Assembly (NCBI GenBank): GCA_951406725.2
Contig: OX597814.1
Span: forward strand, 209,622,001-209,686,000
DNA length: 64,000 nt
Source: Octopus vulgaris
Lineage: Eukaryota
Direction: 5' to 3'
The position numbers and the translations under genes are program-made. This document shows positions 10,505-62,487 of this stretch, one piece after another. The notes beneath the pieces are model-generated. The model had not been told where the DNA came from. It saw only the letters and a list, made by a program, of their open reading frames with translations, and searched no databases. Numbering within the stretch: position 1 is the stretch's first letter; each line of letters starts with the position of its first letter.

Positions 10505-10690
10505 CAGAGTTGTTAGCGCGATGGAGAAATCTATTTTCTGCAGTTGATCCGACTCGTTATGTTTCTAGTTCAATTTTCGTCGAGGTACATTTCGCCGTTC
10601 ATTCTTTCGGAGTCGATATAATATATTCCCAGTAAATCAGTGGCGGGGGGCGGGGGTCTATGTAATCAACTATCCTCCTCCCCTAATAAA

Positions 10691-11165
10691 GGCGGCGAGC
10701 TGGCAGAAACGTTAGCATACCGGGCGAAATGCTTAGCAGTATTTCGCCTGTCTTTACGTTTTGAGTTCAAATTCCGCCGAGGTCGACTTTGCCTTTCATC
10801 CTTTCGGGGTCGATAAATTAAATACCAGTAACGCACTGGGGCCGATATAATCGACTTAATCCGTTTGTCTGTCCTTGTTTGTCCCCTTGTGGGTTGTAAA
10901 GAAATAGGTATTTCGTCTGCCGTTACGTTCCGAGTTCAAATTCCGCCGAGGTCGACTTTGCCTTTCATCCTTTCGGGGTCGATAAATTAAGTACCAGTAA
11001 CGCACTGGGGTCGATGTAATCGACTTAATCCGCTTGTCTGTCCTTGTTTGTCCTCTCTATTTAGCCCCTTGTGGGTAGTAAAGAAATAGGTATTTCGTAT
11101 GTCTTTACGTTCTGAGTTCAAATTCTGCCGAAGTCGACTTTACATTTCTTCGTTTCCGGGTCGAT
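10691..11165 (+). mobile_element. SINE family B multimer
   Basis: ggcggcgagctggcagaaacgttagc head; body repeated after aaagaaataggtatttcg junctions. Confidence 0.85.
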
Positions 11166-11555
11166 ATGATGCAATATTATTCCTTATTATGAACTTACTC
11201 AAGTTTATTCCGAGATCAGCAGTTTTCGAAATATTCCGATGTATTTTTTTTTATTCCAATAGATATATAGATCTTTGAATCATAACACGTATGTTTTAGT
11301 ACTGCACGAATATACGTCTGAGGCAACAACTACTTTACGGCTGGTAAATGTGATTCTCAAATCAGTTTCCGTGACATGCAGAGTAGAATGGAATGTCTAC
11401 TCGGCAAAAGATTTAGTATTCATCTCTGTTTCACTCATCCTTCCCCCTAGTGGAAAATATAAGAAACCACGACGACGACGACCACCACCATCACCACCAA
11501 TACCACCACCACCACCACCACCACCACCAATGCCATCATTATCATCATCATCATT

Positions 11556-14044: not shown

Positions 14045-14664
14045 CTACTATAGGCACAAGTGCTGAAATTTTTTGGAGTGGTGGGGTGGGTGGTAGTTAA
14101 TTAGATCGACCCCAGTATGCAACTGGTACTTAACTTATCAACCCCGAAAGGCAAAGCCGACCTCGGCAGAATTTGAAGTCAGAACATTAAAGACAGACGA
14201 ATTACCTATTTCTATTTCTTTACTACCCACAAGGGGCTAAACACAGAGAGGACAAACAAGGACGGATTAAGTCGATTACATCGACCCCAGTGCGTAACTA
14301 GTACTTAATTTATCGACCCCGAAAGAATAAAAGGCAAAGTCGACCTCGGCGGAATTTGAACTCAGAATGTAGCAGCAGACGAAATACTGCTAAGCATTTC
14401 GCCCGGCGCGCTAACGATTCTGCCAGCTCGCCGCCTTTAGTTGCCATAATATAGAAACATAAGGCGGTGAGCTGGCAGAAACGTTAGCACGCCGGACGAG
14501 ATGCTTGGCGGTGTTTTGTCTATCTTTACGTCCTGAGTTCAAATTCCGCCGAGGTCGATTTGCCTTTCATCCTTTACGGGTCGATAAATTAAGTACCAGT
14601 TTCGTACTGAGGTCGACCTAATCCACTAGTCCCCTCGCCAAAAATTTCGGGCCGGGTCCAGCTA

Positions 14665-20610: not shown

Positions 20611-20648
20611 CTTTTTTACAATTATAAAAATGATTAGTCATAACATTT

Positions 20649-21349
20649 ATGTTTGTTGCCACTTCAATATGACCGTTCCGCACGGAACGATGTTACCCCT
20701 AATTCTTAATCCCAAGAGAACACCTTCCCCAGCTGGTTAACAACGCAACCTGTGTCCGATATATTGCAAGCAGGGAAGCGAAGCCTCACCATCTTCTAGC
20801 GATTTGACAGGACTAGTAGACCAGCGTGGTTTCGAGCTATTTTTGGCCCATCCTCAGTACTGGACACCTGTCCGCTACAGATGGTAGATGTTCGGCGAGC
20901 TGGCAGAAACGTTAGCACGCCGGGCGAAATGCGTAGCCGTATTTCGTCTGCCGCTACGTTCTGAGTTCAAATTCCGCCGAGGTCGACTTTGCCTTTCATC
21001 CTTTCGGGGTCGATTAAATAAGTACCAGTTACGTTCTGGGGTCGATATAATCGACTTAATCCGTTTGTCTGTCCTTGTTTGCCCCCCCCCTCTGTGTTTA
21101 GCCCCTTGTGGGTAGTAAAGAAATAGGTAGATGTTCGCTCTAGCTTGCAATATATAGAAAAATAAACGACATACCCGGAAACGAAGCTGGTCTACTGGTC
21201 CTATCAAATCGTTAAAAGATGGCAGGCGTTCGCTGCCCTGCCTGCAATATATCGGACGCAGGTTGTATCGTTAACCAGCTGGAGAATATATTCTCATGGC
21301 AAGAATGTCGTTCTGTACGGAACAGCCATGATGAAGTGGCAAGAAACAT
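20649..21349. mobile_element. Foldback/MITE-like element with about 180-bp imperfect terminal inverted repeats, interrupted by a SINE
   Basis: 20649-20833 is the reverse complement of 21178-21349 (e.g. ccagctggttaac/gttaaccagctgg and tccgatatattgca/tgcaatatatcgga). Confidence 0.7.
20893..21129 (+). mobile_element. SINE family B, young copy with TSD
   Basis: 12-bp duplication ggtagatgttcg at 20883-20894 and 21126-21137. Confidence 0.9.
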
Positions 21350-22405
21350 TACTTTTTTTGTATAATTAATACTGGCATCCCTTATAGAGATCTTAGATTT
21401 AGCTACTTTGTTCATAGAATTGATATTAATAGAAGAACACAATAGAATAAAAAGCCGAGCTAGGGCATCCTATTCTACGAACGGTGATCAGTTTCTTAAT
21501 TGGCAGTAATCATATTAGAGCATATAAAATTTGTCTACAATGAATTAATACTTTCTAACCTTGTTTAAAGGAAATTAGAATCGATTAAATAACCCTCAGT
21601 ACTTGACAGTGCAATAATTATATATGCACAAATTTCTATGCAAAACTCTTCTCGTTCGGATTTGAATTGAGAAGGTAAAATGCCGGGAATAAGTATCAGA
21701 AGATATTTTGTTAGACACTCGAAAGATTTGGGCGCGCCACCGAATAATGAATTTTTAACACAGTATTCCCATGGCTTTTGTCAACTATAAAGTTAACAGC
21801 GATAACAACGACACCAATAATTATTTCCTGCAGAAAAATACCACAAGGGAGGTCGACGAACAATCAATGGGCAGAACAAACTATAAAGGAAAAATAAAAT
21901 ATAACGAATAAATAAGGAAATGGAAACAATACAAATAAAAGTCAACTAAATCCCCAAACAATTGAGCAGTCATGTGTGACTCTCGCACATACACACAAAC
22001 ACTAGTTTACTCATATACAAATACTACAAATGTAAATTTTTCCAGGCGAAAACATGAATTTGCTGTAATATAATAACTGATATATTATCATGTAAGGATA
22101 AAAAAAAAACGATCCTTGATTCCATATTCGTTCGCGATAATTGTAACCATTTATGTTTCCGTTCTATAATAGATTTGTGTAATGTATATACACAAACACG
22201 CAAGGAAGCTTAGATGCATGCTTGCACGCATGCATATATATATTTATATATATCCACACACATTTATATACATATATATGTATTATATATTGTATATGTA
22301 TCTATATAAATATATATACATATGTATATATAGCATGTATATATCTATATACATACATATACATTATATATATATATATATGAATATGAATGTATACAGG
22401 AGTGT

Positions 22406-31069: not shown

Positions 31070-31480
31070 CTACTCTAGGCACAAGACACGAAATCTTGGG
31101 GAAGAGGCCAGTCGACTAGATCGATCCCAGTCCGTAACAGGTAATTAATTTATACAAGGCGGCGAGCTGGCAGAAACGTTAGCACGCCGGGCGACATGCT
31201 TAGCTGTATTTCGTCTGCGTTACGTTGTGAGCTCAAAATCCGCCGAGGTCGACTTTGCCTTTCATCCTTTCGGGGTCGATAAATTAAGTACCAGTTACGC
31301 ACTGGGGTAGATGTAATCGACTTAATACCTATGTCTGTCCTTGTTTGCCCCCTCTGTGTTTAGCCCCTTGTGGGTAATAAAGAAATAGGTATTTAATTTA
31401 TCGACCTCGAAAAATGAAAGGCAAAGTCGAGCTCGGCGGAATTTGAACTCAGAACGTAAAAATAGACGAAATACCGCTAG
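31070..31480. mobile_element. SINE family B plus-strand copy (31158-31391) nested in a minus-strand copy
   Basis: Duplicated ggta(a/t)ttaatttat flanks the inner copy. Confidence 0.8.
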
Positions 31481-32412
31481 AGGACACTAGTACTGCAACA
31501 TTTTGTTCTATAGTAAGCCTATGTTTATCTTTGTAGGTAATTTTATAATGTCTTTCTTTTCATAATTGGTTGTATATCATTCCAGTTTTAACAATCTCTA
31601 AATATGATGCTAGAGACATTAACTGCCATAACGTTTTAGTCCAACGGGTAGGTCTCTGCAATTTTTTGGCTTTTCGGTTCTTTTCACTAATTTGATATTG
31701 ATGTATGGGAAAGTAGTAGATTATTGTCATTTTTGTAAAAGAAACTGGTCACGTCGACTGAAACCCAGGACAAGCAACGTAAACAGAATTAAGAAACGGT
31801 ATAAGAATAGCTTAGAAATTGGGAGGGGAGGTTAATACAAGCATAAATAAAAGAAGTCTAAAAAATAAGACTAAAATGCCTATAAGAACATCTGGAGTTT
31901 TCTCAAACTTGTGAATCAAACTTCATTTTGTACAGTCGTTATTCTGGTCGTCTTTCAATTTCTGGTATTCTGCAGCACTTTTCTTCTAACGTGTTATAGG
32001 AGGGAACACCATCTAATCCACAACCTGGGTAACGTTGCACCATTTGGACTTAACACATGCCTCAAAACCTTATGATACTTCTATTCTACATATTATTTGT
32101 TTCCTCATTCGGTTCTTATTTGCTATTACTTAATGTGTACATACGACATATATGTACATGTAGGTATTCATTCATGTCTGTATCTATATACGAAAAGATA
32201 TATATATATATAAAGAAATATCAGACACGTGCCCTCAATAATTACTCAAGGTAGGCAGTTGGTGACGTTTATGTAGTAAAACACGAAAAAAAAAAAAATA
32301 GCGAAACACGGGCGGGCAAATGAATTGGAGGCAGAATTACTTCTGCTTTTAGAGCGCGTAAAGAAAACGTTGTTGTAGAAATGTACGCAGCAAACAGTAC
32401 TATATGTAGTTA

Positions 32413-32818
32413 AGGTGGCGAGCTGGCAGAAACGTTAGCACGCTGTGCGAAATGCCTAGCGGTATTTCGTCTGTCTTTACGTTCTGAGTTCAAATTCCGC
32501 CGTGGTCGACTTTGCATTTCCTCCTTTCGTGGTCGATTAAATAAGTACCAGTTACGCACTGGGGTCGATATAATCGACTTGATCCGTCTGTCTGTCCTTG
32601 TTTGTCCTCTCTGTGTTTAGCCCTCTGTGGGTTGTAAAGAAATAGGTATTTCGTCTGCCGTTACGTTCTGAGTTCAAATTCCGCCGAGGTCGACTTTGCA
32701 TTTCATCCTTTCGCGGTCGATAAATTAAGTACCAGTTACGCACTGGGGTCGATGTAATTGACTTAATCCCTTTGTCTGTCCTTGTTTGTCCCCTCTATGT
32801 TTAGCCCCTTGTGGGCAA
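32413..32818 (+). mobile_element. SINE family B dimer
   Basis: Consensus match; junction aaagaaataggtatttcg. Confidence 0.85.
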
Positions 32819-32884
32819 TGACTGAAACAAGTGGATTAAAAACTAAAAGGACAAAAGGACACACACACACTTACACACACATAC

Positions 32885-33150: not shown

Positions 33151-33303
33151 CCAGTGGCCCACACACATACACACATGTATATGCTTGTGTTTCTAATAAT
33201 ATAGCTATTAGATCCAAATATGGGCACATGAGTGAAGATGTAAAAAATGATACTATTCCTATCATCATAAGCCATCCTCCACCTAAGTTGACACTGTCGC
33301 TGA

Positions 33304-33536
33304 TACCTATTTCTTTACTACCCACAAGGGGCTGAACAGAGAAAGGGCAAACAAGGACAGACAAACGGATTAAGTCGATTACATTGACCCCAGTGTGTAG
33401 CTGGTACTTATTCAATCGACTCAGAAAGGAAGAAAGGCAAAGTCGACCTCGGCAGAATTTGAACTCAAAACGTAACGGCAGAAGAAATACGGCTACGCAT
33501 TTCGGCCGGCGTGCTAACGTTTCTGCCAGCTCGCCG
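33304..33536 (-). mobile_element. SINE family B with TSD
   Basis: cgctgatac at 33298-33306 and 33537-33545. Confidence 0.85.
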
Positions 33537-33699
33537 CGCTGATACTCCACCACTGTTAGCATCGTTTCAGCCGCCACCGCCACCGCCACGGCCACCGCTG
33601 CTGTTACCGCTACCGCTACCGCCACCACTCCACCACCACCACCTCTACTAACTTTGTTGCTCCGCAAATAACAACTACAGTAACTAGTTCTATATTGAT

Positions 33700-34045
33700 A
33701 ATGGTTTCGACTTTTGGCACAAGCCGAGTACGTTTTGAGTGGAGGGGGAAGTCGCTTAACCGACCTCCAGTACTTAGCTGGTATTTATGGCGGCGAGCTG
33801 GCAGAAACGTTTGCAAGCCGGGCGAAATTCTTCGCGGTATTTCGTCTGCCGCTACGTTCTGAGTTCAAATTCCGCCGAGGTCGACTTTGCCTTTCATCCT
33901 TTCGGGGTCGATTAAATAAGTACCAGTTACGCACTGGGGTCGATATAATCGACTTAATCCCTTTGTCTGTCCTTGTTTGTCCTCTCTGTGTTTAGCCCCT
34001 TGTGGGTAGTAAAGAAATATGTATGTATTTTATCGACCCCGAAAT
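33700..34045. mobile_element. SINE family B plus-strand copy (33789-34018) nested in a minus-strand copy
   Basis: Consensus match; same insertion point as at 31157. Confidence 0.8.
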
Positions 34046-34233: not shown

Positions 34234-34505
34234 ATATCATTATTGCTGTGAAAGACCAAAGCAATAAAGTCTGTGTATTGATGGACATGAGCGTTACTTG
34301 CCATCATAATATCTGGGCAAAAGAGTTTGACCAGTGCAGAAAATATAAAGATTTGCTCATTGAAACCCCAAAAAGCTGTAGTATCTCAAGGCGCTTACAA
34401 TACCAATGATTGTAGGAGCACTTGGAATGATCACAAAAAAAAAAACTGAAAATTATTTTAGAACGACACCTAGTTTACCATCCACACGAGAAGTGCGAAG
34501 GATTA
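34234..34505 (+). mobile_element. RLE endonuclease remnant of a non-LTR retrotransposon
   Basis: KDQSNKVCVLMDMSVTCHHNIWAKEFDQCRKYKDLLIE...IVGALGMI. Confidence 0.7.
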
Positions 34506-34555
34506 TTTGCATTATTTACATTGGACGGATATGTGTCCTCATCTTGTTTTTTGTT

Positions 34556-34601
34556 ACCATAACGTTTCGGCTAATTTACTCTCCAGCCTTCATCAGGTAT
34601 C
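34556..34601 (-). ncRNA. Minimal hammerhead motif (stem I degenerate) in a short repeat at about 34508-34660
   Basis: Minus strand CUGAUGA-a-GGCUG...UAGCC-GAAAC-GUU. Confidence 0.55.
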
Positions 34602-34666
34602 CTAGTGGAATTTTGAACCTAACCCTGGGTTCTCATTCCTAAGGTATTTTGATATTATTATTTTGA

Positions 34667-43486: not shown

Positions 43487-44104
43487 GTACAGGCACCATT
43501 TTTCGTCGCCAGTAGCGATTCGGTAAAGAAATCGTTGCTTGTGTCCATGAGTTGAGCAGTGACGAGCAGTCAAACCAGCGAAGATTGTGGCTCGTTGATT
43601 TTTGATGTTGTCACTTAAAGCATGCGGAACCTATGCTCCATACTTCTGAATCTTTCCCAGTGAGCGAAGATGCTTCTCTATAGCAGTGTGGGAGCATTCA
43701 ATTGTCTCTGCCAGTTCCCCTGTTGTTTGACGAGAATTTTCGTGCAAAAGTTGGTTTAATCGCTTGTTATCGAACTCAACTGGACGGCCAGAACGAGGTG
43801 CGTCTTTGAGGTCAAAATTTTCATACCAATCACAAGCTGTTCTTTCAACTACGAGACCCTCTCCATACATAGCACAATTGTTGCTAGCAGCTTTTGCGAC
43901 CTTAGAGCCTTGGTTAAAGGCAAAAAGAAGGAGGTGGTGAAAATGCTCTTTTTTCTTAACTTGACATTCCATTTTAATGATCTAAAAAGGAACAAAAGTA
44001 AACAAAATTTAACTAGAAAATAAGAAACAAAATAGATTCCAAAATTTAAAAATGCGATAAATTCCAAAATTTGAAAAACACGGCGAGAACTTAGTTGCCA
44101 ACCC
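43487..44104 (-). mobile_element. Mariner (Tc1/mariner) transposon 5' half, pseudogenised
   Basis: ORF 43631-43972 has the HTH region and PRSGRP. It continues through *VPHAL (WVPHEL motif) to TGDEKWCLY. Putative TIR gggttggcaactaagttctcgccg ends at 44104. Confidence 0.9.
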
Positions 44105-44184
44105 GAGACTATAGTAGAAGACACTTGCCCAAGAGACCACGCAGTGGAACTGAACCCGGAACTATGTGGTTGGTAAGCAAGCTA

Positions 44185-44188
<4 letters not shown>
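44102..44188 (-). mobile_element. SINE family C 5' segment
   Basis: taagtagcttgcttaccaacc...gggcaagtgtcttctactatagtctcggg on the minus strand. Confidence 0.85.
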
Positions 44189-44225
<37 letters not shown>

Positions 44226-44400
44226 GTTTAAATATTTGTTGTGCAAGATTTTTTATGTGAAGTCGTGTGTTGAAACAGATATTGTTATATTTCGGAATGG
44301 TCATATTGCCAGTTTAGCCAATAAAAACACACGCACTATATATTTGGTGTTATTTTGCTTCAGTGATATTTATTTTTTACATTAATCTTAATCTTATTTC

Positions 44401-44445
44401 GGCCAGAGTTCTTTCATCACACTCCTGTGACCGCATCAGTGGTCC
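44401..44445 (-). ncRNA. Variant minimal hammerhead motif in the PLE 3' UTR
   Basis: Minus strand: GGACCA-CUGAUGCG-GUCAC-aggagu-GUGAU-GAAAG-aa-CUC-UGGCC. Confidence 0.55.
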
Positions 44446-44886
44446 TTTGTTTTCTTCTCACTTACTTGTGTCTCTCCTTACTAACCGTCAGCCATTTTGT
44501 ATTTCTATTGTATGTCTTCATTTGCGCATGCTTATATCTCTATGTGCATCTATGTTTATTTAGTGTGTGTGTGTGTGGGGGGATGCCTGTAATATTTGTA
44601 TCTTCTGTTTATATACATTCATGTAATTTGTATTTTGTTTTTGTTGTTGTTGCTTTTGTTCTAATTTTGTTCATGTGTTTACATCCACCCATTATTATCA
44701 TTACATATGCTTGTATGTATGTATAACAACAATATTAGTAATAATAATAATAAATCTAATCGAAAAAAAAAAAATATATATACATACATATACATACATA
44801 GATATATATACATATATATAGTTATTCAGTTCTATTTGTTTATTTATCTGTGTATTTATTTATTATGTTTTCGGGATCCTCTATCG

Positions 44887-47800
44887 TCATATGTTGTGGT
44901 GTGTGCTATTGCTCCATTCTAGTTTTCTATTCAGGCTAGGTTTATTTTCTATTATATGTGTAGCTTCTGTAATTTGTCTAATTGTTGCATCTGTTCTATG
45001 TGTGGACAATATCTTAATCTCTATGTTATTGATTGATCCCCCGTGTTCCTGTTCGGCGTGTTGATACAGAATCGACGAGCTTTTACCTTCCTTCAGTTGT
45101 CTCCAATGTCCATTCACCCGCTCTCCTATGCTTCTTGCCGTTTCCCCTACGTATGTTATTGTCTTGTTACTGCATCGTCCCTCTATACATCTTATACTAT
45201 AGACTACATTTCTGGCTTTACAGTTTGTTTGTGGGCTAAATCTACATACAGTGCAATAGTTATCCGTACAGAGGCTTCTACTAAAAGGATAGGTTCTACC
45301 AATTATAGATTTGATAGGGTTGCCTGGCTTTTCAACAACCTTAATTCTTAGTTTAAGTTTATCCAGGGTCCTTCTAAAGCGGTACGCCAGTTCACCTCCA
45401 GGGGTGGTGTCAACGAACATGACACTCTGGTATTTATGGCTATCATACCAAGTGTTGGCCTTCCCTATTTTCTTTTTTGTCCTTTCTATAGTGTTCCATG
45501 ACTTGTTCCTATAGAGTGGGCAAATCCCATTCCTATCATTACATAATATATTATCAAATTTCTTCATGGCTCCTTTCTATACTCTGATCCTTTCTTTATG
45601 GCTGTAACCTGAGAACTGCATGCGGTGAATGAAATACTGTATGTGTCTCTTTAATTCTGTAGGCTCGCACATGCGTGACACATTTCTCATTATTCTGACG
45701 AGGTCTGCCATCAAAATATTGAATTTGGCATTGCCCGCAATGGCTGAGTTCCGGTGGATCAGGTATTTTGAGGCCATAGGTTTTGCATAGTATGAATGAA
45801 GGATTTTGGTTTTATTTTTCACAATTTCTAGCCAGAGTTCAGTGTCTAGTACTGGTAGTCTATGGTTGGGGTGTTTAGTGGGGTAGTCTATTGTGACCTT
45901 AATACTCTGGTGGATGGAGTTAGCTATTTGCTGGATGCTCTCCATAGTATTAGTTTCTAATTACTATATCAACATTACTCTCTTGTGGGGGTGCCTTTAC
46001 TACTATGTTCATATCATCAACATAGCGAGAGTACATGTTCACGAGTATGGATTTCTGCAGTAGTCGTTCTTTAAGCCTTCTGTCCCACCATACCATGAAA
46101 AGGTTGGCCACATCACCAGCGATACTAACACCGATGGCTGCACCCTCGTCCTGGGCATATATTTTATTATTAAATTTAAATGTGTGGCCTTTTAGGGTAA
46201 CTCTTATACTAGCTCCTAGTGCATGTGCGATCATTTTCTTTACCTGATGGACATTTGCGGGGCTCCGTATTGCTCTGGTCCATCCGCGCCATCTTTCTAT
46301 ATGTGTCTTCCTAGCCATAGAAGTAATTGTAGGCGGTCTACCACTTATACATCTACTGGGGCAGAAACTACTAAGATTATGTTTATCTAAGTATTCGTTA
46401 TTATATGTCAGTCTAAGTAGGAGGCCGAGTTCTTCTGTGTTGACATTACAGAACTCCACCTGGCTCTCGTTGATCATCTCCACGCACTTCTCCACTGCAA
46501 AATCTACGTCAATCGATGGGTATAGGGATACCACATCCATGCTACCTACTATACATCCTGTCAAGTCACAAGTTTTGTTACAGTCACTGATCCTGCTTAG
46601 GAGATCTTCTGTGCTGTCACACACATCAGGTGACATCTTGATTATAGGGCGTATGATCATTGAGAGGAAGTAGGAGATTCTGTAATTGCTAGCGATATTC
46701 GCTCCACAGACTGGTCTTGTTGGTGGTCCTGCTATAGGGTCAGTAAAAACTTTATGGTCCTTGCGAAGTCCATACAGTGCCGAGATATCATTGTTCCAGG
46801 CTTGGAAATTCTTTGCAGTACGTTTCTGGGGTCCCAAAACAATTGTCCACATCATCATGTGGGCATTGAGGACCTTTTCTCTCTCCTCATGCGCCTGTAC
46901 AGTTGTTATTTTTGTATTGGCGATATGAGGTTGCATTGCCTGGATGTAGTTCGGTAAGCTGTCTATTGACATCCTGCCGGACTTATCTGTGGGAAGGCAT
47001 ATCACCTCTCCGTTCCTCGTGCGCTGAATGAGCTTCTGTACGTCACATGCAGGTTTAATCCCGAGTTGTTGGGCCTCTGTCTTATTCTGTCTCTGTCTCT
47101 TAATGTATAATCCTAAAATCTGTCTAAGTTTGTTCCTAGCTATAGTGAACTGTGCTTCCATATGGTCATTAGTACGTCTTGGGGTGTATACTCTTTTGTT
47201 GAAGGGTAATGTTGTTGGATAAATCCGGTTCATGCAGTAAGTTTTGTCACATACGTTGAAGAATTGAGTGTCAAAGAGATGGGTATACATGTCAATGGTC
47301 TTTCTAGGGTTATCTTTATTATCGTTACTGTTTCCAACATCAGCCTTCCTATTATTATTATCACCATTACCACTACTACTATTATTCCTATTACCACCAC
47401 AACTATCACTACTATCCTCATTACTACTTCTACTGTTACCATCACCACTACTACTACCACTATTATTGTTATTACCTTTATTCCTACCATTGCCATTATT
47501 ACTATCATCGCTAGTGATATATTCATTGTTCCTGTTTCTGGTATATGTGTTGTTCATATTAGTGTTGGGTTTTATGTCTGTCTGTTGGTCCCTGTCATTC
47601 CCCCTGTTGTGGTTGTTATTTTTGTTCCTATGAGTATTGTTATCTGTTTCAAGTCTGCTGACTCCCTGTCCAAGGATTCTGTTGCATTCAACTTTATTTT
47701 CCATCGTGACCCCCATGACACAACTTTTATTCGTATCTTTGTGACTATGGTTATCTGTGTGTGTGTTTGTGTGTCGGTTCTCCCTATAATTGTTGTTGTT

Positions 47801-48278
47801 GTTGCTGTTGTATACGATTTTTTTCTCTCTGTTTGTGTTTTTGTTTTTGTATCTATTGTTTGCGTCTATGCATTCATTTTTTCTATTGTTGTTGTTGTTG
47901 CCGCTGTTAGGGTTCGTGTTGCTTTTGTTGATACGGTTGTTATTGCTGCGGTCATTATTGTTTGTGTTGTTGTTGCTGCGGTTAGTGTTTTTCACGTTGT
48001 TGTTGTTGTCGCAAGTGTTGCTTTCATTGTATCTATTCAAATTCCAACGTATTTTTGTGAACGACTTTTCAATCTCAGACAGGCATTTGATGGTATTCAC
48101 CTTTACTATACACTGCATACTTTGGTGGTAGTTGAAGTATCGATATTTCGTCTGGGTCCGTTGTTACTCCCCCATAGATGTTCGCTTCATTGTCTTTATT
48201 GAACTCTTCTGGTAGTAGCACATCTTCCATAATAATTCCATTTATTGTATCTGGATACTTCTGTTTTTCTTCCTTTGC
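44887..48278 (-). pseudogene. PLE reverse transcriptase / GIY-YIG endonuclease polyprotein (about 1130 codons remaining; frameshifts near 48101 and 45960, in-frame TAG at 45577-45579)
   Basis: RT motifs: PTDKSG, LYGLRKDHK, PTRPVCG, SMDVVSLYPSID, QDEGAAIGVSIAGDVANLFM, YSRYVDD, LPVLD. Linker: CTDNYCTVC. Endonuclease: VVY-x-YVGET-ER-H...H..H...EA...LN. Confidence 0.92.
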
Positions 48279-48316
48279 GATCCCGAAAACATAATAAATA
48301 AATACACAGATAAATA

Positions 48317-48401
48317 GGCAAGTGTCTTCTACTATAGTCTCGGGCCGACCAAACCCTTGTGAGTGGATTTGGTAGACAGAAACTGAAATAAGCCCGTCGT
48401 A

Positions 48402-52139: not shown

Positions 52140-52408
52140 GTGTGTGTGTGTGTGTATGTACACACACACATACACATGTAATTCCTTTACTGGTTTCAGC
52201 GATTGCACTATGACCATACTGGAGGACCGCCATATAGGATTAATCGAAGACATCGACCACCTTACTTATTTTCAAAGTTTGGTACGTATTGCATGGAAAT
52301 GAGGGACGTTTACGGGGAACGTCAACAAAGGAACATCGATTGCCATGAGGTGAGGGGCAAAAGCTCTCTTTTGGCACCTCCGGCTAACAATATTACTTCG
52401 ATTAGTAA

Positions 52409-53055
52409 GGAGGTGAGCTGGCAGAAACGTTAGCACGCCGGGCGAAATGCTTAGCAGTATTTCGTCTGCCGTTACGTTCTGAGTTCGAATTCCGCCGAGG
52501 TCGACTTTGCTTTCCATCCTTTCGGGGTCGATAAACTAAGTACCAGTTACGCACTGGGGTCGATATAATCGACTTAATCCGTTTGTCTGTCCTTGTTTGT
52601 CCCTTCTGTGTTTAGACCCTTGTGGGTAGTAAAGAAATAGGTATTTCGTCTGCCGAAAGGCGGCGAGCTGGCAGAAACGTTAGCACTCCGGGCGAAATGC
52701 TTAGCGGTATTTCGTCTGTCGTTACGTTCTGAGTTCAAATTCCGCCGAGGTCGACTTTGCCTTTCATCCTTTCGGGGTCGATAAACTAAGTACCAGTTAC
52801 GCACTGGGGTCGATATAATCGACTTAATCCGTCTGTCTGTCCTTGTTTGTCTCCCCTGTGTTTAGCCCCTTGTGGGTAGTAAAGAAATAGGTATTTCGTA
52901 TGTCGCTACGTTCTGAGTTCAAATTCCGCCGACGTCGACTTTGCTTTTCATCCTTTCGCGGTCGATTAAATTAAGTACCAGTTGCGAACTGGGGTCGATC
53001 TAATCGACTCGCTCCTTCTCCCAAAATTTCGAGCCTTGTGCCTAGAGTAGAAAAG
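52409..53055 (+). mobile_element. SINE family B nested multimer
   Basis: Two heads (52409 and 52659) and three bodies; ggtatttcgt duplicated at the junctions. Confidence 0.85.
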
Positions 53056-53827
53056 AATATTACTTATATTAGTGAAGGACTTCAGGTAATCTTTTGGTAG
53101 GATCCTATGTTATGGTTCATCACAATTCTCTATTGTAAAACCGTGGATGGGCTCCAGAAAAACTAGTTATTTACACAGAGTGATATATAAGAAACAAGTT
53201 AAAAGTAATGGTCATTACAAACTGTTTCTTTACTGGACCAAATTTCCACATTTTTCTTTCACTGTTTTCAGTTTTCATAATAGGTACATCACCAATAGGT
53301 TTACTCAATTGCTCTAATAATATGTAATGGTCATTATTTTTAACTTGTTATATTTATATATATATATATATTTGATACAGGAAAGAGATAATTAAATAAG
53401 AGATTGTATAAGGTCACTCGTCGTCAGGAGATCATGGAACACATCTCTCTGAAATCAAAACCTTGAAACAGCAAGGGCGCGTCAGATAAATTAGCACACG
53501 ATGTACAGTTGCACAACGCATCAAATAAAACAGGATGGCTACGGACGGATCTCCTTTGACCACATACGTTAACTCAATAACAAAAATATTCAGCCAAGAG
53601 AGCAAGTTTCGGTATCTTGTATCAAGTCTTGTGACGGTTCCTTTGCCTGGACAATTAATTTTTAAATTGTTGATCTCATAAATTTTAAAGCGGATACAAG
53701 TTTATACTACTCACTGTCGTAAGCAGCAATATTTATTGAAGAAATTTCGGTGAGGTTGACTTTACCTTTCATCCTTTCGGAATCGATAAAATGAGAACTA
53801 GTTGAACACTAGGGAGAACTAGTTGAA

Positions 53828-54062
53828 TACCTATTTCTTTTACTACCCACAAGGGGCTAAACACAGTGGGGACAAACAAGGACAGACAAACGGATTAAGT
53901 CGATTAGATCGACCCCAGCGCATTGCGTAACTGGTACTTATTTAATCGACCTCGAAAGGATGAAAGGCAAAGTCAACCTCGGCGGAATTTGAACTCAGAA
54001 CGTAACGGCAGACGAAATACGGCTAAGCATTTCGCCCGGCGTGCTAACGTTTCTGCCACCTC
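53828..54062 (-). mobile_element. SINE family B
   Basis: Consensus match. Confidence 0.85.
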
Positions 54063-54755
54063 AAGCTTGCTGGCATTGTGTTGAAATTTGTAACCAATAT
54101 CTATTTAATGTCATTTAGATTTGCATTTGAATTTTTCTATAGGTATGAATTAATATACTAAATTGGTTTATCCATAGGTCAAAACAAATGACCCTTATCA
54201 CTTACTGATATTTTGGATAATAAAAAAACTGGAATATTTGAATCATTCATATAACAACATAAGACTTAGGACTCAGAAATGCAGCATAAAAGGAGAATGA
54301 CGCTATTCCCATTAGAGATTTCAACACCCATCCATTAGAAATAGATATTTGATGCTGCTCACATATTTCAAAGATATGAAGTAAATCAATAAAAGTATAA
54401 TACACAGTTACTTTCTGTCACTGTGAGCTTGAGTTTTGACAGAAGGCAATTCATATTTCTAACTTATATGATTGATAATTGAGTTTTATGATATCATAAT
54501 GCAAGGAGTAATAAATTAAATTTCTTTCTTTTAAACCTTTAGATACCCAATCCTTTTATTGGGACATATGTATGTACACACACACACACACACACACGTA
54601 ATATATTCATATATATATACACACACATATTTATATGTATGTATTTGTATATATGTATGTATATATATATATATGTATATATACATACATATATAGATTA
54701 AATATATATATATATATATATATTTATGTATATATATATGTGTGTGTGTTTGTCT

Positions 54756-55692: not shown

Positions 55693-55926
55693 ACCTATTT
55701 CTTTATTACCCACAAGGGGCTAAACATAGAGGGGACAAACAAGGACAGACATAGGTATTAAGTCGATTACATCGACCCCAGTGCATAACTGGTACTTAAT
55801 TTATCGACCCCGAAAGGATGAAAGGCAGAGTCGACCTCGGCGGAATTTGAACTCACAACATAACGGCAGACGAAATACTGCTAAGCATTTCGCCCGATGT
55901 GCTAACGGTTCTGCTAGCTCGCCGCC
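55693..55926 (-). mobile_element. SINE family B
   Basis: Consensus match; lies within a 22-bp TSD together with a tRNA fragment. Confidence 0.85.
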
Positions 55927-55937
55927 TTTTTTCTTAA

Positions 55938-60733: not shown

Positions 60734-61405
60734 TCTGTTCGAAGGTTTTATTTACCTAGTTTCGGTGGAATACATCCACTTGTTTTCAATAATAGAAATA
60801 TTAAAATTACTAAGTCTCTCTAAAAGAGATTACCGCAGCGTTACTGGAAATTAATTGTTATCGCCATATTAATATGGCAGTCTTGTAGATATAAGACTTA
60901 AAGCTGTCTGTGATTAGCTCCATGAGGCCATCGCCTTAAGATAGCTATTTGACACACAAACTGTGTCCATTATAACCTTCGAACAAGGGAGGTCAGCCGC
61001 TTCACACTGCTAGTCAGACAGCTACAGACGCGTTTCAGGGTATTTGAAAACAAGTGGATGTATTCCACCGAAACTAGGTAAATAAAACCTTCGAACAGAG
61101 ACGATCAGTTGCGACACCTGCTGGGTCGACTACGCTACATTGACAAGGGGCAAATACTCTGAAACGCGTCTGTAGCTGTCTGACTAGCAGTGTGAAGCGG
61201 CTGACCTCCCTTGTTCGAAGGTTATAATGGACACAGTTTGTGTGTCAAATAGCTATCTTAAGGCGATGGCCTCATGGAGCTAATCAGCGACAGCTTTTAG
61301 TCTTATATCTATAAGACTGCCATATTAATATGGCGATAACAATTAATTTCCAGTGACGCTGCCGTAATCTCTTTTAGAGAGACTTAGTAATTTTAATATT
61401 TCTAT
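60734..61405. mobile_element. Retrozyme-like element: A-B-A'-C-B' interleaved inverted repeats of a circularly permuted unit of about 360 bp
   Basis: A 60734-60789 is the reverse complement of 61044-61099. B 60792-61046 is the reverse complement of 61151-61405 with few mismatches. Confidence 0.8.
61134..61176 (+). ncRNA. Type I hammerhead ribozyme with U3-A8 compensatory core
   Basis: GCUACA-UUGACAA-GGGG-caaaua-CUCU-GAAAC-GC-GUC-UGUAGC; perfect 6-bp stem I. Confidence 0.7.
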
Positions 61406-62487
61406 GATATATAGATAAATACATATATAGATATAGATATATGCACAGACATATATATGTTTATACATACACAGGCACACACACAAATGTGTGTATGTGT
61501 GTACGTATGTGTGTGTATGTATGTATCTATGTGTGTGTGTATAATAATATATATATTCAGAAAGAGAGAAAGTAAGAGAGAGAGAGATAGAGAGCAAGGG
61601 GAGAGGGAAAGAGTGATTTATACTGTCTGTAGGCGGTGGAGTTGTCACAGTATTTACGTTTAATCAGCAACAGTTTAACTAGCACATGTCGGCCATTGAT
61701 ATGGATGGCGATAGACTGTCATGTGAAGTGTTTCACAAACTGCGCCCATCTCTCGGCCAGCACTTATTAAATTCAATCGAAACCGCCATCCGCTTATACA
61801 CGCACATAGAGCAAATATAATTATTCAACTTCGCGTATGAAAAGATGCGTCAGTTAGTTGGAGATACAAGGCCAAAAATGTCTATCAATGATTAATATGA
61901 CCTATTGACTTCATCAGAAGACGAAATATTGGTCAAGATAGAAATCTCTATTTCGGTTAAATGTTTAAATTCTACTTGGGTTATGTTTGCTTTTAATTCC
62001 TTCAATATTAATATATTAACTGCATGTTATTTACGGAATATACTCAGTCTGTTATGCTGTCTTATTTGTACACACGACTTTATATCGAGCAAAACAGGAA
62101 GATTAGATGTTTGCGTTTAACCTGTTTAAAATGGCAGCCAGTTTCTTCAAAATCATAACTTCTGAGAAAATTAGAAGCACATACAGTACAATGTAGGCTC
62201 CAATATAAAAGAGCAACAACATGGTATCTATTAGAAAGTCTTTGGCTGGAGATCTCTTTAATCAAGCGTGTCATGCTGCTAATCTCTTAAGCTTATACAC
62301 CGCTTTATTAACCAGGAAACAAAACTACAAACATGGATGCACGCACACACGCGCGCATACACACACATACATACACACACATGCACAAACACATACAGAC
62401 ACACAAGCACCAGGCACACGCATGGACGTACAAGCACACTTGCACAAACTTCACAAACACACACGCACACGTGCACACACAGACACA

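Follow-up and report, generated by a model that had tools for sequence, protein, structure and literature searches.

A dead copy of a young octopus Penelope-like element family with a long insertion in its reverse transcriptase

The 64,000-nucleotide (nt) stretch of the Octopus vulgaris genome analysed here (contig OX597814.1, positions 209,622,001 to 209,686,000; called the window throughout and numbered from its first letter) carries on its minus strand a Penelope-like element (PLE), in which a reverse transcriptase (RT) and a GIY-YIG endonuclease (EN) share one reading frame. We consider it probable, at roughly 0.72, that this element, dead and truncated at its 5' end, derives from a very young O. 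vulgaris family, and that the family belongs to a large, likely unnamed group of PLEs marked by an insertion of about 70 residues in the RT fingers.

Six-frame translation of the window copy gave about 1,130 codons in the four segments that a preliminary description of the window had listed, interrupted, as counted there, by two +1 insertions and one TAG. Alignment to an intact copy from elsewhere in the genome (L016) returned exactly this damage, the TAG being a TAC>TAG change at codon 1080. In this alignment 1,127 codons are ungapped, 103 of 4,000 aligned bases are DNA mismatches, and an Asn-rich tract differs in length twice, by 36 and by 9 nt, each time in frame. None of the three breaks was found in any other locus compared. 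The YVDD, the FVDTTPGGEL motif, the CX4CX2CX7C linker and the GIY-YIG with CCHH that were listed earlier are all present (Table 1), but the copy is not "nearly intact" as then stated: it begins at codon ~165 of 1,309, and the first ~164 codons, the start codon and the upstream pseudo-long terminal repeat (pLTR) are lost. Because these codons and the 5' repeat are missing, the window copy is a dead, 5'-truncated insertion, ordinary in itself. The interval first assigned to it, 44224-48316, does enclose a real element, while its closing segment (48279-48316) is an inverted copy of the 3' untranslated region (UTR), at 100% identity, and not the 5' end. A later inversion of 44102-48316, which would also have removed the rest of the inverted arm, is likely from the arrangement of the flanks.

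In order to place this copy in a family, the octopus genome (2.80 Gb, 227 contigs) was searched with the RT, which returned 4,487 candidates; all 120 places that were scored matched at E < 1e-200 with 88-100% identity, several of them in open frames of 1,310-1,312 amino acids (aa). Twenty stretches selected for long open frames were fetched, and 10 of these contain complete open reading frames (ORFs) of 1,307-1,309 aa counted from the first Met, so that the intact copies suspected earlier do exist. In all 10 the EN is C-terminal, in agreement with the earlier assignment to EN-bearing (EN+) PLEs. The family unit measures 4,587-4,598 nt and holds a single 1,309-codon ORF, whose ATG lies inside the pLTR, 135 nt behind a hammerhead ribozyme core. 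Partial tandems are found in which inverted, 5'-truncated arms accompany the copies, the arrangement drawn for PLEs in PMC8557442. Among 97 pLTR ends in 69 loci, 16 continue into the ORF and the 81 others were counted as 3' ends; of these, +26 accounts for 26 and +82 to +85 for 30, and a TA repeat follows in 66 of the 81. The window copy carries the long end, or tail. The optional tail, the pLTRs from partial tandems and the inverted 5'-truncated copies are EN+ PLE traits, all present in the family, as are a telomerase-like RT, a GIY-YIG EN in the same ORF and a hammerhead motif in the pLTR. A 22-nt hammerhead probe has 3,302 exact matches in the genome and a probe just beyond the pLTR has 34, and 5' truncation is therefore heavy. 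One annotated O. vulgaris F-box/LRR isoform (P0105) includes ~150 aa 98% identical to the family RT and is probably a gene model running into an insertion. Contigs of four runs, whose RNA nature is only guessed, match an intact copy in 25-28 of 30 bins, with 571 nt of the low-copy 5' part of the ORF among the stretches covered, and leave the non-repeat parts of a control stretch without cover; neither observation is used as evidence.

The 10 intact ORFs differ pairwise by 1-26 nt (median 16) of ~3,930, which makes the family very young, where a fairly young one had been suspected. With 22 of 2,463 bases private to it (0.9%), the window copy would be about 2.5 million years old at the rate of 0.0036 per million years used in PMC13282606. 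For the most similar intact pairs the age would come to well under 0.2 million years, if polishing has not homogenised the copies. Selection was examined through the changes shared by 20 older copies (91-95% identical) when set against the young one. In the RT and EN, synonymous and replacement codons stand at 11:6, 12:6 and 17:4, with pN/pS of about 0.07-0.15, while the Asn-rich tract, at 3:18, has no synonymous excess. Long low-complexity inserts upstream of the RT are also found in two relatives (P0046, P0050) at the same N-terminal site, which may therefore tolerate expansions, and Asn-rich in-frame inserts are known in rotifer Penelope ORFs (PMC3846280). Those of Adineta vaga likewise comprise several hundred in-frame residues, ~30% Asn, in an otherwise intact ORF; however, they belong to the Penelope/Poseidon group and have the Asn-rich part between RT and EN or thumb, not upstream of the RT.

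The most unusual feature of the element, which the preliminary description missed, is the distance between motifs RT3(A) and RT4(B), 128 aa in the octopus element. Among 120 relatives listed (33-54% identity, except for two octopus proteins) it is 126-135 aa in 101, the other 19 not being measurable by pattern, and it is 117-159 aa in 85 of the 150 best profile matches. In comparison, it is 58-61 aa in 109/120 Neptune-type and 47-63 aa in 83/120 Poseidon-type proteins; counted by hand in Fig. S1 of PMC8557442, it is ~57-60 aa in Penelope, Neptune and Nematis, ~84 in a Naiad, up to ~119 in a Chlamys and 110-150 in telomerase reverse transcriptases (TERTs). Judged from these alignments, an insertion of ~70 aa is located where telomerases have their insertion in the fingers domain (IFD). 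It is about as conserved as the RT core, with a mean top-residue frequency of 0.50 vs 0.53-0.58 there (117 sequences). An AlphaFold model of RT, thumb and EN has a predicted local distance difference test score (pLDDT) of 93.6, and of 92-98 in the insertion; its top 14 structural matches are all telomerases (best Z 16.2, root-mean-square deviation (rmsd) 3.3, 265 residues aligned), and the EN model matches I-TevI (Z 10.2, rmsd 2.1, 88 aligned).

The insertion goes together with a set of motifs that defines the group, namely DKS or DKT for the PLE DKG motif, GG[APS]IG at RT4, a CX3-5CX2CX6-11C linker and CCHH; the octopus element reads TDKS, and GAAIG at RT4. The RT4 form is found in 100 of the 122 profile matches with a parsed motif, and the linker in 51 of the 120 relatives listed, 5 not parsing so and 64 having no EN found by pattern. 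A group profile collected 2,818 clusters at E <= 1e-30, some of which are possibly other PLEs, and the Atlas clusters near the query, from very few records, are of Mollusca and Ctenophora. Two trees were built, with the insertion cut out, from 60 and 35 of 115 aligned rows (4 rows with unparsed motifs were dropped earlier), the second under a quick model, and with Neptune- and Poseidon-type sets built from other PLE families of the same genome. All sampled group members (24/24 and 14/14) fall together, separated by a long branch from both the Neptune-type and the Poseidon-type set, with Shimodaira-Hasegawa-like approximate likelihood ratio test (SH-aLRT) values of 99 and 100. A single Hydra-type row joined the group's branch in one tree; we distrust this as a meeting of long branches, and the octopus Hydra-type ORF (L234) has a very long branch of its own.

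These results suggest that the group is large, likely unnamed and probably nearest to Nematis. Pfam finds no family in the intact 1,309-aa ORF and gives only sub-threshold RVT_1 and GIY-YIG matches in relatives (GIY-YIG at E 0.0014, also sub-threshold, in the window element), and PDB sequence searches returned no PLE or TERT, the best profile matches being bacterial DRT RTs (E 3.6e-5 and 0.0064). No description of the group was found in the open literature searched, and in the papers searched the insertion, the C-terminal GIY-YIG, the Nematis-spaced linker and the hammerhead are unreported together. A weak search for the group's RT4 motifs in the supplement of PMC8557442, where sequence lines are incomplete, found none, and a 2026 preprint (10.64898/2026.07.22.740005) still lists eight PLE clades. 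The bolder proposal stands at about even odds: that this is a ninth major clade, widespread in animals and overlooked because Pfam barely recognises its RT, which would combine a C-terminal nuclease with a telomerase-length insertion and be represented in the octopus by at least 10 intact, near-identical copies, probably still active, in which a conserved base of the hammerhead core is gone.

Several points weigh against this picture. The labels Neptune-, Poseidon- and Hydra-type are our own and follow motifs shown in the figures of PMC8557442, and the Neptune-type set, made up of relatives of one octopus family, is narrow. Of the RT phylogeny that the preliminary description had called for, the trees cover the group and the Neptune-, Poseidon- and Hydra-type sequences, with Nematis, Naiad, Chlamys, Athena, Coprina and TERT outside the sample. 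It is possible that Repbase or Dfam already lists the group under "Penelope" names, or that it is placed inside Nematis in PMC8557442 (Fig. 8). The near-identity of the copies could be inflated by assembly polishing, the assembly of PMC13282606 having been made from Nanopore and 10x reads. Between older and young subfamilies the 69 codons of the insertion have changed only four times, once synonymously and three times with replacement, which does not suffice to demonstrate selection, and its role is a proposal only. Finally, the hammerhead region of an intact copy folds into stems I and II with an energy no better than shuffles (z -0.8).

An alternative that we regard as possible but less likely is that the family belongs to Nematis in a wide sense, as a big invertebrate sub-branch that gained the insertion and altered RT4, with some members already in Repbase. 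Like Nematis_C4, Nematis_Cr and Nematis_Pp (PMC8557442, Figs S1, S2 and S7), the octopus element has a C-terminal GIY-YIG with CCHH and a short linker, CX4CX2CX7C being the very spacing of Nematis_C4 and Nematis_Cr, and the region between thumb and linker and the EN end are alike by eye in three rows. Besides, PMC13282606 describes 30 "Penelope" families as recently active, and these likely include the ten intact octopus copies. In contrast, the insertion is missing from both Nematis rows of Fig. S1 (the C. remanei row has a spacing of ~60 aa by count), and RT4 is GLAMGxRLAP in all three Nematis rows of Fig. S7, whereas the octopus group has GG[AP]IG there. The ORFs of the group differ further from Nematis in their 1,000-1,300 aa and a long helical N-terminus, and PMC8557442 describes canonical PLEs as without an IFD. 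A search with a Nematis pattern matched a phage tape-measure-like ORF and one bacterial contig and yielded no Nematis sequence.

It is improbable, in our view, that the insertion is a true IFD homologue kept from a PLE-TERT ancestor, which would make the group deeper than the canonical C-terminal-EN clades. The position is the same, the length is in the TERT range (~110-150 aa by the count of Fig. S1), and telomerases are the best overall fold match. However, a 201-aa model from RT3 to RT5 aligned with TERTs over only 104-153 residues (Z <= 6.2), namely 118-119 in Tribolium, 104-124 in human, 111-127 in Tetrahymena and 130-136 in Candida, at rmsd 4.3-8, and most of the insertion was not superposed on the solved IFDs. 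These alignments extend little beyond the insertion-free core, and the insertion therefore occupies the IFD position without clearly sharing the IFD fold. Moreover, Craig et al. 2021 (PMC8557442), who among EN+ PLEs report the IFD only in clades with an N-terminal EN, note sporadic IFD-like regions in Coprina and warn against the IFD as a shared mark.

The other named systems resemble the octopus element in part. Naiad and Chlamys share an insertion between RT3 and RT4, of ~20 aa (Naiad) and ~20-40 aa (Chlamys) according to the text of PMC8557442 vs ~70 aa here, and some Naiads share the (TA)n preference; however, the octopus EN is C-terminal and a hammerhead is present, canonical hammerheads being lacking in Naiad/Chlamys. 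A Naiad pattern had no match in the octopus genome or in viral contigs. Like the octopus element, Hydra elements target (TA)n and have a C-terminal EN with a short linker, a divergent RT4 and, in the N-terminal region, an RW pair, but they are without CCHH or IFD and under 3 kb, whereas the octopus element has CCHH, the insertion and a 4.6-kb unit. A third young family of the octopus genome, of Hydra type, has intact ORFs of ~710 aa (L232, L234 and L235; G000:C1) and 320 exact matches to its RT4 pattern. From Penelope/Poseidon the element differs by its linker finger, which is absent in 94/94 Poseidon-type proteins with an EN found.

The hammerhead motif of the family is of the minimal PLE type of PMC4209133, with a short stem I, an extra base ahead of stem II and a tiny stem III. 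In the dominant form position 9 is C. An A is kept in 297 exact matches, of which the five examined are older (85-93% over the longest match). A9 (numbered as in PMC4209133) is a conserved base of the hammerhead core; no effect of A9C was found in the literature searched. The cut site is CUC in 12 of 13 older copies and CUU in 48 of 71 motifs from mostly young loci. Among metagenome relatives, sense-strand minimal hammerheads lie downstream in 10 of 80 loci, nine with A9 and one with C9, and none was found on the other strand. Two relatives (L116:2497 and L136:2426) have a U3-A8 core variant, L116 also having C at position 9. At the sequence level, the drift of the core during amplification fits the finding of PMC11167929 that hammerhead cleavage is unnecessary for insertion in vitro, and since the core drifted while the family amplified, cleavage is likely dispensable.

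The preliminary description had also read the element as a candidate autonomous partner of the other hammerhead repeats in the window. The region of the element matches no other part of the window except the flanking host repeats, and a motif scan found clear hammerheads, minimal or canonical, at two further places, 34596 and 20857; Rfam at gathering scores reported nothing in the window. The 34596 repeat (34500-34660, minus strand), a solo pLTR whose hammerhead is minimal and canonical, comes from an old and broken PLE family of Poseidon type, with 3,651 first-look candidates in the genome and mostly interrupted ORFs; it occurs in 23/30 Poseidon-type loci vs 0/83 loci of the family described here. 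The 20857 repeat represents an older family, with 72-85% identity among copies and no tblastn link to the octopus ORF in 11 other loci; in the window it forms an inverted pair (20640-21350, core CUGAGGA) interrupted by a 235-bp repeat. When the pLTR was compared with six local candidates on both strands, five were no better than shuffles, and 20857 was equalled by 1 of 200 shuffles on the opposite strand only, in one of 12 comparisons. Non-autonomous hammerhead repeats have been tied to PLEs via pLTR similarity (10.64898/2026.07.22.740005), and the partner claim fails because this tie is missing here.

The Cys-rich linker had further been called typical of Neptune. Neptune elements do share a C-terminal EN with such a linker, (TA)n targets and a hammerhead in the pLTR, but the linker gap is 6-11 residues in the group (7 in the octopus element, as in the Nematis rows) vs 19-30 in 77/120 Neptune-type proteins, and the group has DKS vs DKG; the octopus element has GAAIG vs AMG at RT4 and a spacing of 128 vs 59 aa. 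The group lies on a branch apart from the narrow Neptune-type set; Neptune itself is paraphyletic in PMC8557442. A second young PLE family of the same genome, of Neptune type, has many intact 781-aa frames (L066:2244-4586, G000:C16). A nearly intact Neptune-type element mobilising the hammerhead repeats of the window, for which the linker, the hammerhead-bearing pLTR and the youth of the family could be cited, has next to no chance against a truncated and broken copy, a patchy alignment to L066 (best 28% over 170 aa, with DKG, AMG, 59-aa spacing and a long linker in L066), and the local hammerheads, of which the one at 34596 goes with Poseidon-type ORFs.

Table 1. Features of the window copy and its immediate flanks (positions in the window)
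Feature	Position	Strand	Basis
28 nt of host short repeat	44102-44129	+	inverted duplicate at 48317-48344; repeat split over the two flanks
(TA)n tract at 3' end of element, likely target	44187-44223		sequence
Longer 3' end (tail, ~56 nt); the family prefers ends at +26 and +82/+85 from ATG	44224-44278	-	family end counts
ATG and first 27 ORF codons, repeated within 3' pLTR	44224-44304	-	tblastn, 100% over aa 1-27
3' UTR and pLTR, including microsatellite tracts	44224-44886	-	alignment to L016; tandem unit 4,587-4,598 nt
Minimal type-I hammerhead, variant core (C at 9; this copy also U at 11.1)	44401-44445	-	motif scan, fold, family counts
5'-truncated ORF, codons ~165-1309, with two +1 insertions and one TAG	44887-48280	-	translation; alignment to L016
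CX4CX2CX7C linker plus GIY-YIG endonuclease (CCHH and the catalytic R, H, E and N present)	44920-45267	-	Pfam sub-threshold; structure model
FVDTTPGGEL motif downstream of thumb, conserved across group	45388-45417	-	translation; alignment of relatives
Premature TAG, private to window copy among loci compared	45577-45579	-	alignment to L016
+1 insertion downstream of RT5, private among loci compared	45961 (approx.)	-	alignment to L016
RT5(C) YVDD	46013-46024	-	translation
Conserved RT3(A)-RT4(B) insertion of ~70 aa, at telomerase IFD position	46253-46465	-	128-aa spacing; motifs in 117 sequences; pLDDT 92-98
TDKS, the group's version of the PLE DKG motif	46979-46990	-	motif comparison
Asn-rich in-frame insert (~260 aa, 33% N in intact copy), absent from aligned relatives	47305-48037	-	alignment
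+1 insertion in N-terminal domain, private among loci compared	48102 (approx.)	-	alignment to L016
38-nt inverted copy of 3' UTR (44841-44878) at 5' truncation junction, 2-nt microhomology	48279-48316	+	100% identity
Second, inverted copy of the 28-nt host repeat piece	48317-48344	-	sequence comparison

Around the element, 43590-44101 holds a decayed transposase fragment (43631-43981, minus strand), which we take to be mariner-like and whose end abuts the duplicated 28 nt. At 60734-61408 lies a long palindromic repeat with 258-nt arms at 97% identity and similar copies in L033 and L054; near 61135-61180 it has what looks by eye like a decayed type-I hammerhead. A very abundant repeat of ~235 bp, often in partial tandems, occupies 10685-11166, 14094-14653, 31156-31480, 32406-32819, 33303-34024, 52406-53062, 53826-54063 and 55693-55932, and is extremely deep in the contigs of the four runs guessed to be RNA. 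The motif scan found no hammerhead in this repeat or in the ~400-bp repeats of the window.

Taken with PLE biology as described in PMC11167929 and PMC8557442, the data suggest how such copies may arise. In intact members the C-terminal GIY-YIG would nick (TA)n DNA and the RNA would be reverse-transcribed at the nick, a tandem copy supplying promoter and start codon. The protein would bind its own RNA near the ORF start and nick AT-rich DNA, synthesis of cDNA would start at one of two internal sites (+26 or +82) and so leave the optional tail, and early termination followed by a template switch would produce 5' truncation with an inverted arm. We further propose that the basic, conserved insertion may help to keep the short RNA-DNA duplex in place, a function that the IFD has in telomerase, but with an independent origin, and that hammerhead cleavage is likely dispensable in this process. 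The window copy would afterwards have acquired its three breaks and, likely, the inversion that removed most of the inverted arm.

A large clade that combines a long insertion at this site with a C-terminal nuclease breaks the published pattern, in which the IFD is confined to N-terminal-EN clades and sporadic Coprina (PMC8557442), and marks the RT3-RT4 site as a repeated target for additions. With intact copies that are nearly identical, the protein can be taken straight into the in vitro assay of PMC11167929, and the hammerhead core, which drifted in steps while the family amplified, lends genomic support to the result obtained there that cleavage is not needed. If the group is indeed a ninth clade, the octopus copies would offer a ready system in which to ask what part the insertion plays in target-primed reverse transcription and whether the ribozyme is needed at all.

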